The notes under the pieces are model-generated. The model was given only the letters and a program-made list of their open reading frames with translations. It ran no database searches and was not told the origin of the DNA. From Candidatus Uhrbacteria bacterium (GTDB lineage Bacteria > Patescibacteriota > Patescibacteriia > UBA9934 > GWF2-40-263): a stretch of DNA of 64,000 nt. Location of the stretch: contig JACQSK010000007.1 of NCBI GenBank assembly GCA_016205975.1, forward strand, positions 5,328 through 69,327, read 5' to 3'. A program made the position numbers and the translations under genes. This document shows positions 17,225 to 18,704 of the stretch, in pieces (within the stretch, counting starts at the first letter, position 1; each line of letters opens with the position of its first letter).

Positions 17225-17264
17225 AGGGAGGAGGGGGACAGAGGGCGGCAAAGGGGAGTATAGC

Positions 17265-17296
17265 AAAAAAAAGGACTCAGGCCTTAGCATGAGTCC
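17265..17296 (-). terminator. strong intrinsic terminator closing the ncRNA locus
   Basis: On the minus strand, hairpin GGACUCA-ugcuaaggcc-UGAGUCC followed by U8. Sits just upstream of prmC, so it ends a transcript coming from 17.3-18.0 kb. Confidence 0.65.
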
Positions 17297-17990
17297 GAGT
17301 TTCCAACGGCGGAGGGGGTGGAAGGTGGAAACCTTGGCCTGGGAGATTGAGGCGCAAGCGTCTCGTTCAGATCCAGGTTTTTGGTCATGCGCCTTCCATC
17401 CCTCCGTCGCTCTCGGGGACGGCTTGGGTCGTCAGCTTTTGGTTATTACTGAAGACGTTTGCCCTCGTGATCTTCCTGTTGCGTTTAGCATCGCCATCCT
17501 TCCGAAGAAGAACCCTGTTGCGTTCAGGACTACCCGAAGGTAATCGAGAGACGCGACAGACGCTGCTTTTATAGCTGGCCCGACATTGCTGCCAAGCCCA
17601 GGGGTGTTCAGGAGTTTATCCTCGAGCCCTCATATGGTTCACCCGGAGTCGGCCTAGGCATTGCTGCGAGGCTTTCTCAGCGAGTTCCTTTTGAGGGGGT
17701 TGATCAACGTTACGAGTGGAGGTCCAGGATTTGGCGGCTGATGTTGTTCCCGTTCGTCCGGGGGAGAAAGTCACCTCTCAACCCTTTCCTTCAGGACACC
17801 AGCGGTGCCATGACTCTTAGCCACGGCCGTAGCCAGAGTGTCTGTCCCTTTGTCGATCGGCTGATCGAGAGTCGTTTCAGGCGAGTGCCAGCCGAAGCTG
17901 ATTCACGCCGTTCACGGCTCCAGGTTCGCGTCCTTGCGGACGCTAGGCCGGGGGTTTCAGCTTTCGCTTATCGCCATCCGACGGTAACGA
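17297..17990 (-). ncRNA. rnpB?: candidate large structured ncRNA(s); 5' part possibly RNase P RNA
   Basis: No credible ORF across ~700 bp. Minus-strand features: two UUCG-tetraloop hairpins (GAUUACC-UUCG-GGUAGUC and CUUC-UUCG-GAAG), a GCAA-tetraloop hairpin, and a stem closed by the 7-nt loop CUAAGAG, which resembles the RNase P P14 loop GUAAGAG. A GCCAAAU block and CCGCUGGU are reminiscent of M1 RNA. Promoter-like TTGACG-N17-TAACAT upstream, U8 terminator downstream. The canonical P4 strands were not located. Confidence 0.35.
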
Positions 17991-17994
17991 CCAT

Positions 17995-18021
17995 GTTATA
18001 GGATCAGAGAAAATGCGTCAA
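17995..18021 (-). promoter_or_regulatory. sigma70-like promoter candidate for the ncRNA locus
   Basis: On the minus strand, TTGACG then a 17-nt spacer then TAACAT, just downstream of the stop of the 18039..18704 gene. Confidence 0.3.
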
Positions 18022-18038
18022 GGGCAGATACCCATAGG

Positions 18039-18704
18039 TTATCCACAGAGGCGCTTACGAGCGGCTTCCAGCTCTTGCGCGGTTCCCACTGGCAACCAGA
18101 AGTTCGCTTGAACGCCAGCGATCTGGCTGGTTTTTGCGAGCACGGCAAGCGTTTGTGGAAGTCCGAACTCGGTAAACTCGCTTACATGGATTTCAACAGG
18201 CGACACTTGAAAGAAAGAATCGTTGAGCAGGTAGGCGCCGCACACGGCATTGCGGCCAGGCGCGAGCTCTCTGAAGTGTCCTTGCTCGATCACGGCGGCG
18301 GCTTTGAGGTCATGATCCGACAGGTGATAGAGAAGAGCCAGGTCATGGGCACAGAGCCGTTCGAGGTCTTCTTTCCGATACAGGTCGTCGCCGTTGACCA
18401 CCAGGAACGGACGTCGGAGATGGCTGCGCAGCAAGTGAACCGCGCCGGCGGTTCCTGAGAGCGGTTCTTGGATCACGTAGCGGATGGGCGTGTTGCGCCA
18501 GGCCGTGCCCAGATATGCCATAAGGTCTTCACGCAGATGGTTCACAACCACAAACAACTCGTCGACATTCTCCGGCAGCGCTGAAAGCACATGCGCGATG
18601 AGTGGTTTCCCGCAGATGTCGATGAGCGGTTTGGGGGTTTCGTGCGTGAGAGGCCGCAGGCGCGCGCCTTTGCCGGCCGCGAGGATGACCGCTTGCATAC
18701 TCAA
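18039..18704 (-). CDS. sugar-phosphate nucleotidyltransferase (NTP_transferase family)
   Basis: N-terminal AVILAAGKGARLRPLT glycine-rich loop of sugar-1-phosphate nucleotidyltransferases. Confidence 0.75.
   Translation of the reverse strand: MSMQAVILAAGKGARLRPLTHETPKPLIDICGKPLIAHVLSALPENVDELFVVVNHLREDLMAYLGTAWRNTPIRYVIQEPLSGTAGAVHLLRSHLRRPFLVVNGDDLYRKEDLERLCAHDLALLYHLSDHDLKAAAVIEQGHFRELAPGRNAVCGAYLLNDSFFQVSPVEIHVSEFTEFGLPQTLAVLAKTSQIAGVQANFWLPVGTAQELEAARKRLCG

Follow-up and report, generated by a model that had tools for sequence, protein, structure and literature searches.

The window analysed here, a stretch of 64,000 nucleotides of Candidatus Uhrbacteria DNA, carries on its minus strand a gap of ~0.8 kb (18038-17225) that adjoins a PF00483 nucleotidyltransferase gene on one side and prmC on the other and holds no credible open reading frame (ORF). 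prfA, the nucleotidyltransferase gene, the predicted RNA and prmC all lie on one strand, and the main features are as follows:

18704-18039, minus strand: PF00483 nucleotidyltransferase gene, with prfA upstream of it
18039..18047, minus strand: perfect DnaA-box 9-mer (RNA strand, TGTGGATAA; plus strand, TTATCCACA), with 17 nt between it and the downstream -35 element
17993..18021, minus strand: sigma-70-type promoter TTGACG-17-TAACAT, from a promoter scan and the same promoter in homologues
17265..17988, minus strand: predicted RNA of ~720 nt, from inferred start to end of the U-tract, based on signals, folding and alignment
17265..17296, minus strand: intrinsic terminator GGACUCA-N10-UGAGUCC followed by U8, from sequence and a homologous helix
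17257..17265, minus strand: predicted extended -10 promoter TGCTATACT of prmC, outside the RNA, a motif also present in relatives

The longest ORFs of the gap (86, 75 and 52 aa) have no Pfam match and no ORF is shared among the homologous gaps, in which only 49 of 310 pairwise indels have a length divisible by three and no 3-base periodicity shows in the substitutions. With no conserved frame, no codon periodicity and no Pfam homologue, the locus is, as judged from its sequence, not a protein-coding gene or pseudogene. The ATG at which the listed 324-aa prmC ORF opens lies within the terminator hairpin; because homologues align only from residue 23 onward, we place the true prmC start at ATG 17224, which is also the start that the earlier note implied.

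Transcription signals of the proposed RNA gene and of prmC

TTGACG-17-TAACAT is the sole promoter-like site in 16800-18600, where shuffled sequences give 0.4, and a TTGAC-17/18-TAnnnT promoter opens every homologous gap. The signals put the inferred transcription start at ~17988-17985. At the other end, the homologous terminator helix (helix 29) has five pairs with compensatory changes, and a T-rich terminator stretch closes the insert in most homologous loci, with weak U-tracts in a few (L002 and L007). The single minus-strand site returned by a terminator scan, 18121-18104, is inside the upstream coding sequence, leaving one promoter and one terminator on the RNA strand within the locus. By these signals, the RNA gene is served by a near-consensus sigma-70 promoter and an intrinsic terminator of its own, both on the structured strand; the ends, abundance and processing of the transcript are predictions from the same signals. 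The picture agrees with the earlier note, which had described an ORF-free locus between prmC and the nucleotidyltransferase gene, a promoter-like sequence on the minus strand, a hairpin with U8 just before prmC and ~720 nt between the two.

An extended -10 motif also lies directly 3' of the RNA terminator in L007, L074, L153, L156 and L159. Because this promoter follows the terminator, we regard prmC as a separate transcription unit. If the RNA were instead a cis-acting 5' leader of giant size, or a regulatory RNA, belonging to prmC, such as an attenuator sensing a metabolite or factor, this would explain why it is always immediately upstream of prmC on the same strand; the terminator could then serve as the attenuator, and the weak U-tracts of L002 and L007 would fit. 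We nevertheless consider such a leader unlikely, given the conserved prmC promoter, the presence of prmC without the RNA in many Uhrbacteria and in all Saccharibacteria examined, and the predicted box-controlled promoter that the RNA keeps in L011, where the upstream gene differs. Moreover, we know of no precedent for a leader of 0.6-1.2 kb.

Distribution and predicted fold of the RNA

About 20 distinct Uhrbacteria loci contain an ORF-free insert of 0.6-1.3 kb after prfA or the nucleotidyltransferase gene and before prmC, each with the same promoter and the 5' end UUACCG and otherwise very diverged in primary sequence. Among 21 Uhrbacteria species genomes, 14 have an insert between these genes, ORF-free and 0.65-1.3 kb long in 13 of them, and inserts are also found in all distinct extra loci that reach past the transferase gene (L074, L153, L156, L157, L159, L160, L161/L162 and L164). 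The RNA measures ~560-1170 nt in relatives. It is missing in 8 of the 21 genomes at the prfA-prmC locus, the one place examined in them; L008 has a 207-nt spacer without a promoter and L021 a 412-aa ORF at this position. In Saccharibacteria, the same place has either no gap or protein-coding genes.

Because a blastn search of 72 prmC loci with the gap matched L012 and L007 only (2 of the 21 genomes) and nhmmer added weak collinear matches in L011, L002 and L009, sequence search alone misses most members of the family. Most of what a metagenome scan with an alignment of the nucleotidyltransferase brought up came from other CPR lineages; only three Uhrbacteria loci were useful, and exact-protein look-ups yielded more. 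For the distant groups, models of the 3' domain gave weak matches (L010, E 0.005; L161, 0.14; L011, 0.24) and none in L014 and L016-L020; their homology is inferred from synteny, promoter, box, 5' end and shared fold. Exact searches of viral contigs with two 14-mers of the RNA gave chance matches only, none with the composite features.

Fast divergence of the primary sequence, like the ORF in L021, could also be expected of a decayed protein-coding gene or of a neutral spacer with chance structure. We regard this explanation as wholly improbable in view of the coding tests described above and of the promoter, box, 5' end, terminator and covarying 3' domain, all kept between lineages that share only 45-60% identity in their flanking proteins.

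The folding energy of the RNA region exceeds chance expectation on both strands, with z-scores of -4.55 (minus) and -3.50 (plus). Together, sequence and comparison delineate the following parts:

17982..17987, minus strand: UUACCG at the RNA 5' end, at the same position in 16 of 17 sequences
17947..17982, minus strand: 5' hairpin GUCGG...CCGGC around a GAAA-capped inner stem (helices 2 and 3)
17928..17943, minus strand: GCAA-tetraloop hairpin GCGUCC-GCAA-GGACGC, where a variable expansion region begins
17900-17889, minus strand: CAGC-UUCG-GCUG hairpin, seen in the sequence and additional to those of the earlier note
17701..17866, minus strand: central domain (helices 5-14), closed by the long-range helix GAUCAGC / GUUGAUC
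17545-17528, minus strand: GAUUACC-UUCG-GGUAGUC hairpin, seen in the sequence
17524-17514 and 17485-17475, minus strand: two copies of a AACGCAACAGG box, within 17475..17545
17510-17499, minus strand: CUUC-UUCG-GAAG hairpin, seen in the sequence
17302..17420, minus strand: 3' rod domain, from a match to model R3 (E 3.4e-19 / 1.7e-19) and covariation

UUACCG is the only primary-sequence block kept in all groups, in the form U(U/A)ACC in the distant ones, and no conserved pairing partner of this 5' end was found in 17 homologues. In the 5' hairpin, all cells of helices 2 and 3 are paired, with changes from GC to AU and from GC/AU to AU/CG. L012 and L159 lack the variable expansion region that follows (17927-17870), and in L153 and L156 it is far longer. 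The central domain contains a GGC-CGUG-GCU hairpin, AAGAG and the stems GGCACCGCUGGUGUCC / AACGGGAAC...CAGCCGCC, and 83-100% of the cells of its helices are paired except in the 2-pair helix 12 (75%). In the central region, hairpins with GNRA, UUCG and CUUG caps grow in some lineages and shrink in others, and close relatives keep only the second copy of the AACGCAACAGG box (GCAACAG). From the outside inward, the 3' rod consists of UCC/GGA, a purine-rich internal loop, AGCG/CGUU, GGAGGG/CCCUCC and UGGAAGG/CCUUCCA, and its inner part of GACC/GGUU, CCUGG/CCAGG and a CUUG-capped tip. The rod varies from 105 to 135 nt across relatives; its GGAG/CUCC and (A/G)(A/G)CG/CGUU helices are nearly invariant, and all deeper parts covary. 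The two UUCG hairpins, the GCAA hairpin and the duplicated box pointed out in the earlier note are thus all found; its stem closing on a 7-nt loop CUAAGAG has to be abandoned, since this segment (17820-17814) follows a small GGC-NNNN-GCY hairpin and, in the comparative model, pairs its GAG with an upstream CUC. A helix closing the 5' end onto GUAAUAAC, predicted from three sequences, was likewise rejected as not conserved. Pairing of GGAGGG in the RNA with C-rich mRNA leaders of the genome was considered and dropped, the leader not being conserved in relatives.

Compensatory changes in two small alignments support this fold. In a full-length alignment of six relatives, from which the tested structure was itself derived, 91.5% of the cells of 138 pairs are paired and 28 pairs are changed on both sides, as against 14.7+/-2.7 in shuffled alignments (reached in 0 of 500) and 3-8 in slid controls. 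In the 3' domain of nine sequences from two groups, aligned by a model of the structure under test, 96.3% of cells are paired and 21 of 37 pairs are compensatory, as against 9.0+/-1.8 (0 of 500) and 2-4, respectively. This cross-group test is confined to nine sequences because models R1-R3 obtain weak matches or none in groups C, A2 and L014, with reverse-strand matches to the rod intruding. MAFFT was unable to align the 3' domain across groups. The same rod architecture emerged from 17 independent minimum-free-energy folds of homologues, and cognate strand pairs reach -22.7 kcal/mol compared with -14.9+/-3.6 kcal/mol for mixed pairs, whose strands come from different groups. Between two strains whose flanks are identical, internal segments of ~100 nt differ, yet they are alike in fold. 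The many G-U pairs of the model, which would be A-C on the opposite strand, support the minus strand, as does the orientation of the promoter and terminator.

Given that the 3' rod folds autonomously, that the central region is modular and that no long-range pairing links the 5' and 3' parts in 17 homologues, the locus might instead encode two or more separate small RNAs, produced by processing of a primary transcript or as independent units. We give this possibility little weight; there is a single promoter-like site on the RNA strand and a single terminator (17296-17265), and the modules neither separate nor change their order between lineages.

Comparison with known RNA families

No Rfam 15 covariance model matched the window or ten homologous loci at gathering score. 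At E<=10 for the window gap and E<=5 for five small homologous loci, only chance matches to miRNA, lncRNA, leader and sRNA models appeared, lying outside the RNA or inconsistent with it. ARAGORN found neither a tRNA nor a tmRNA in the 64-kb window; tmRNA (RF00023 and permuted forms) was rejected for want of an ARAGORN or Rfam match, and SRP, 6S, OLE, GOLLD, ROOL, HEARO and raiA for zero gathering-score matches. The Rfam comparison proposed in the earlier note (RNase P, tmRNA, SRP, 6S, OLE, GOLLD, ROOL and HEARO) has therefore matched no family, and we found no description of such an RNA in the literature.

The earlier note had listed RNase P RNA among its options. A divergent, oversized one would share with this RNA a structured, housekeeping-style form of several hundred nucleotides, within a factor of two in size, and lineage-specific helix insertions; no rnpB was found by Rfam elsewhere in the window, and there are a few short resemblances to E. 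coli M1 RNA (GGYUAAGAG..CACCG, GCAACAGA and CCAGGCCAAGG). These resemblances are, however, neither collinear with M1 nor kept in close relatives. RF00010, RF00011 and the archaeal models gave no match in the gap (E<=10) or the five small loci (E<=5), and none at gathering score in ten further loci or anywhere in the window. Neither of the universally conserved P4 strands (GAGGAAAGUCC... and ACAGAAnCCGGCUUA) occurs within 2-3 mismatches in 17225-18040, P4-like matches in the rest of the window do not exceed the number expected by chance, and there is no P1 helix joining the 5' and 3' ends. Finally, the patchy presence, with 8 of the 21 genomes lacking the RNA at the locus, would be unusual if the RNA were an essential enzyme whose gene had stayed in place. 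We conclude that RNase P RNA is a very improbable identity, in keeping with the failure of the earlier note to find P4 strands by eye; its failure to find a tRNA-like end or a tmRNA tag frame is equally matched by the ARAGORN and Rfam results.

The ornate, large, extremophilic (OLE) RNA of Bacillota, ~610 nt, acts as a ribonucleoprotein scaffold. Like OLE, the RNA described here is a large folded ncRNA with its own predicted transcription unit and a fixed neighbourhood, restricted to a lineage and without an obvious base-pairing target. Unlike OLE, whose covariance model does not match it and which has an oapA-type partner gene, it belongs to a different phylum, varies two-fold in length through hairpin insertions and has a DnaA-box-like site upstream. 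The class of large structured RNAs that includes OLE also comprises GOLLD (~800 nt) and ROOL (~580 nt), which are often found in prophages or near tRNAs and form RNA-only multimeric cages (PMC12286853). The RNA resembles both in size class, in its many tetraloop-capped helices and in having been discovered without a function, but their models do not match, and it is chromosomal and syntenic, not phage-associated, with no tRNA nearby.

Altogether, our results favour, as the probable explanation, a stand-alone gene for a large, highly structured ncRNA of an undescribed family so far seen in Candidatus Uhrbacteria (Patescibacteria/CPR) only. The gene combines compensatory change with, as sequence signals, a promoter and terminator of its own, and the covariation analysis of homologous intergenic regions together with the lack of an Rfam match supports the unrecognised large structured RNA that the earlier note had offered as one option besides an unusually large RNase P RNA and two RNAs.

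The upstream box and possible functions of the RNA

The DnaA-box 9-mer upstream of the RNA promoter overlaps the last codons and the stop of the nucleotidyltransferase gene. There are 22 copies of TGTGGATAA in the 380 kb of Uhrbacteria loci, where a uniform-composition estimate expects ~3, and 21 of the 22 are at the RNA promoter; the 9-mer is absent from every Uhrbacteria locus without the RNA and at background frequency in other lineages (8 in 927 kb). Its spacing to the -35 element falls into three classes, 17 (16 in L153), 27 and 48-49 nt, roughly whole helical turns apart; the inverted boxes of L001 and L002, 28-29 nt from the -35, fall within the 27-nt class. The RNA is probably controlled through this box, and we suggest that a protein binding the invariant TGTGGATAA site upstream of the -35 sets its transcription. 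The foremost candidate is DnaA, an assignment we make tentatively, and with some doubt, from the identity of the 9-mer alone. A second, degenerate box or repeat 11-12 nt from the perfect box in some relatives would also fit a different repeat-binding regulator.

A perfect box, at times with that degenerate partner, in a non-coding region could alternatively mark a replication origin or a DnaA-titrating DNA element with no RNA gene. Such an element is highly improbable here, as the boxes number no more than one or two, an AT-rich unwinding region is absent (GC of the RNA region is 0.54-0.57, the same as in its flanks), no dnaA gene lies nearby and cumulative GC skew rises nearly uninterrupted over the 64 kb with no sustained sign change; moreover, tetraloops, G-U pairs and compensatory changes of base pairs are features of an RNA. 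For want of a box cluster, AT-rich element or skew switch, oriC identity was rejected.

The RNA would act in trans as a stable folded ribonucleoprotein scaffold or catalytic RNA in a housekeeping process. The fixed neighbourhood, rpmE-prfA-(ntp)-RNA-prmC, hints at a link of this process to translation, a suggestion we offer with considerable reserve, and a housekeeping role as such is tentative, the RNA being missing at the locus in the 8 genomes mentioned above. Were DnaA to bind the box, the RNA level would be tied to replication status. Because the RNA is fixed between the genes for RF1 and the release-factor methyltransferase, we speculate, as a long shot, that it represents a new CPR-confined class of 0.6-1.2 kb scaffold or ribozyme RNAs that is gated by DnaA and couples replication status to a translation-linked housekeeping step; an RNA of this kind could supply a function that bacteria with reduced genomes lack in protein form.

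Known bacterial ncRNAs of >500 nt are very few (rRNAs, RNase P, tmRNA, OLE, GOLLD, ROOL and group I/II introns), and to our knowledge all of them proved to be ribozymes, cores of RNPs or RNA assemblies of an unusual kind. The CPR/Patescibacteria account for much of bacterial diversity and have tiny genomes and unusual ribosomes; as far as we know, their RNA genes are almost unexplored. Because its fold covaries, its position among translation-termination genes is fixed and its DnaA-box-like site is invariant, the RNA is unlikely to be a dispensable decoration in a tiny genome. It offers a concrete target for cryo-EM and biochemistry and a marker for Uhrbacteria; if it were instead a very divergent known RNA, current covariance models would be missing whole phyla.

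The E. coli mioC, dnaA and nrdAB promoters are regulated by DnaA and have a single upstream DnaA box. The promoter described here is like them in having one consensus TTATCCACA 9-mer, kept at a fixed helical phase relative to a sigma-70 promoter; it differs in that DnaA binding is a prediction and that a large structured RNA would be under its control. We know of no reported case of such a product from a DnaA-regulated promoter, making this RNA a possible first example of a structured RNA under DnaA control.

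Locus and transcription signals

The earlier note had described an ORF-free locus at 17225-18040, between the nucleotidyltransferase gene ntp and the release-factor methyltransferase gene prmC, and both its limits (to within 2 nt) and its lack of a credible gene hold. The listed prmC ORF reaches ATG 17290 and relatives align only from residue 23 onward; therefore, ATG 17224 is the true start and the gap spans 18038-17225. The longest ORFs in the gap (86, 75 and 52 aa) have no Pfam match, no ORF common to the homologous gaps was found, of 310 pairwise indels counted in six relatives just 49 are divisible by three, and substitutions among these relatives show no codon periodicity. 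All motifs listed in the earlier note were recovered in place.

Features of the locus (window coordinates)
19771-18701, minus strand: prfA, the RF1 gene
18704-18039, minus strand: ntp, PF00483 nucleotidyltransferase gene (Pfam)
18047-18039, minus strand: box TGTGGATAA, matching the consensus DnaA box TTATCCACA exactly on the complementary strand, 17 nt ahead of the -35
18038-17225, minus strand: ORF-free stretch of 814 nt between ntp and prmC
18021-17993, minus strand: sigma-70-type promoter TTGACG-17-TAACAT, the sole promoter-like site within 16800-18600
17257-17265, minus strand: extended -10 TGCTATACT of prmC, directly after the RNA U-tract
17224, minus strand: ATG of prmC (Pfam and alignment of relatives)

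Homologous inserts all open with a TTGAC-17/18-TAnnnT promoter, and a T-rich terminator stretch closes most of them. In closer relatives the terminator is followed by the extended -10 of prmC, with homologous sites in loci L007, L074, L153, L156 and L159 and no recognisable -35 in these or in the window, so read from its sequence prmC appears to be transcribed from its own conserved promoter. These signals predict an RNA of ~720 nt that is transcribed from an independent promoter flanked by the box and ends at an intrinsic terminator. Promoter and terminator are oriented like the flanking genes, and the many G-U pairs in the RNA fold would become A-C mismatches if the opposite strand were read.

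A scan of the RNA strand found no internal promoter or terminator within the locus. Because the 5' end has no conserved pairing with the 3' part, the RNA looks like a chain of domains, namely a 5' hairpin, a variable centre and a 3' rod, and it may yet be processed into pieces.

Conserved fold and relation to known RNAs

Folding energy of the gap lies below that of shuffled sequences on the minus strand (z = -4.55) and on the plus strand (z = -3.50). In comparative tests based on few sequences (6 and 9) and on structures derived from, or fitted to, the very alignments tested, the full-length alignment of the six closest sequences (RNAalifold structure, 138 pairs) has 91.5% of cells paired versus 87.4+/-0.5 in shuffles and 28 pairs changed on both sides versus 14.7+/-2.7 (0/500 reach 28), with 3-8 such pairs after sliding the partners 1-3 columns, while in the 3' domain (9 sequences) 96.3% of cells pair versus 82.0+/-1.2, compensatory pairs number 21 of 37 versus 9.0+/-1.8 (0/500; 2-4 in slid controls), and the covariation score is 0.436 versus 0.175.

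Two alignment-free observations point the same way. Folded one at a time, the 3' domains of 17 homologues all form the same rod, which from the outside inward consists of (A/G)(A/G)CG/CGUU, GGAG(G)/(C)CUCC, a variable helix of 6-10 bp, further helices and a capped tip; and main-helix strands pair with their own partners at a mean of -22.7 kcal/mol versus -14.9+/-3.6 with the partners of other groups. A first covariance model of the 3' domain, built from close-group sequences, has syntenic matches in L001 (E 1e-9), L002, L074 and L011 and matches weakly in L010, L009, L157 and L161. With the rebuilt model, forward matches of two sequence groups have E<=3e-19 and reverse-strand matches E>=5e-6. 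Loci L161 and L162 share an equal ntp protein and identical flanks and differ solely in an internal RNA segment of ~100 nt (about 4240-4340; RNA positions 490-587). The two versions of this segment do not differ in length and form the same pair of hairpins, as expected if an expansion segment has been swapped at strain level.

No Rfam 15 model reaches its gathering score in the 64-kb window or in ten homologous loci, and permissive searches (E<=10 in the gap, E<=5 in five small homologous loci) return only chance matches to miRNA, lncRNA, leader and sRNA models that differ by locus. ARAGORN finds no tRNA or tmRNA. The suggestion that the locus encodes an oversized RNase P RNA, which drew on a CUAAGAG loop resembling that of P14, fails on these grounds: the two universal P4 strands are absent, no pairing of the RNA ends was found, and the comparative model does not place CUAAGAG in a loop. 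OLE, GOLLD and ROOL resemble this RNA in size, ornate folding and obscure role, and RNase P RNA likewise carries lineage-specific helix insertions, but no model of these four detects the RNA of this locus, which does not have the features that define them. A very divergent known RNA keeps a small residual probability; the alternative in the earlier note, an unrecognised structured RNA, agrees with the missing Rfam match and with covariation beyond shuffles in both alignments. We therefore rate it as probably a new RNA family, of a functional kind not yet recognised. The literature searches brought up no account of a large non-coding RNA from either Uhrbacteria or CPR.

The promoter box and a proposed working

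The box 9-mer occurs 22 times in 380 kb of Uhrbacteria loci versus about 3 expected at uniform base composition; 21 of the 22 lie at the RNA promoter, and none was found in Uhrbacteria loci without the RNA. In other lineages it occurs 8 times in 927 kb, which is chance level. At several loci a degenerate copy accompanies it at a distance of 11-12 nt. Some lineages have the box across the ntp stop codon, whereas in others it lies well downstream of that codon or after prfA, so its conservation does not reflect a coding constraint. It stands 17 (16 in L153), 27 or 48-49 nt from the -35, and 28-29 nt in inverted form in L001 and L002; these classes differ by close to whole turns of the helix, a sign of a protein contacting the promoter from one face, and DnaA is the obvious candidate, given what is established about DnaA boxes.

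In our model, a box-binding protein, with DnaA as the leading candidate, would set the level of an RNA that takes a conserved, covarying fold and may work in trans, either as a catalyst or as a folded scaffold. Function or protein binding would most likely reside in the near-invariant GGAG/CUCC and RRCG/CGUU helices, the adjoining purine-rich internal loop and the 5' UUACCG, because the helices and 5' block are fixed while neighbouring helices covary. The constant rpmE-prfA-(ntp)-RNA-prmC placement hints weakly at a link to translation. No base-pairing target, ribozyme signature or partner gene was found.

A replication origin was considered and rejected, since the locus has a single perfect DnaA box, its GC content is unremarkable and the GC skew does not switch lastingly anywhere in the window. 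The window contains just one further perfect TGTGGATAA/TTATCCACA, at 39537-39545, ~110 nt upstream of metK; a candidate promoter, aTGACA-17-TATTCT with extended -10, follows it. Separately, a nearly identical pyrimidine-rich leader, CCCTCTG(T/C)(C/G)CCCCTCC(TCC)CTATG, resembling an anti-Shine-Dalgarno rather than a Shine-Dalgarno sequence, abuts the start codon in each of three genes unrelated to one another: prmC (17245-17222, minus strand), metK (39633-39658, plus strand) and a dCTP-deaminase-like ORF named by eye (about 4710-4685, minus strand). Other Uhrbacteria do not share this leader upstream of prmC.

Distribution and local ancestry

The prmC protein assigns the window to Candidatus Uhrbacteria. 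Among 21 Uhrbacteria species genomes, 13 carry 650-1300 nt of ORF-free sequence inserted upstream of prmC, behind ntp or, if that is absent, behind prfA, six have no gap there, L008 has only a 207-nt spacer without a promoter-like site, and L021 has a 412-aa ORF. Look-ups of ntp homologues added L153/L154, L156, L157/L158, L159, L160, L161-L163 and L164, with an ORF-free insert of 760-1200 nt in every locus reaching beyond ntp; L074 came from a metagenome scan. Saccharibacteria have prfA next to prmC or place protein genes between the two; therefore, the element is so far specific to Uhrbacteria.

By blastn only L012 and L007 resemble the window gap. The block (G)UUACCG, which starts the RNA, is the sole one kept in 16 of 17 sequences, with U(U/A)ACC in the most distant loci. 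Predicted RNAs range from about 560 nt (L001, L002, L074) to about 1170 nt (L009, L160) through gain or loss of hairpins, mostly GNRA-, UUCG- or CUUG-capped. The most distant groups (L014, L016-L020) are tied to the family by synteny, promoter, box and 5' end only and may be regarded as putative members.

Different elements occupy the site elsewhere. The L008 prfA-prmC spacer (5794-6000) has 17-nt inverted repeats at its borders, GATTCTTGTAAAACTCG / CGAGTTTTACAAGAATC, enclosing a palindromic core rich in GC, and in the more distant lineage of L021, L077 and L078 the 412-aa ORF between ntp and prmC has a signal-like N-terminal segment. Finally, we note that the region 16316-19771 of the window shows mosaic ancestry relative to L001, L007 and L012: prmC is 91% identical to that of L001, while prfA (87-89%) and ntp (72-74%) are closest to L007 and L012 and the RNA is of their type, a pattern suggestive of recombination with its breakpoint close to the 3' end of the RNA gene or right at it, or else of a chimeric assembly.
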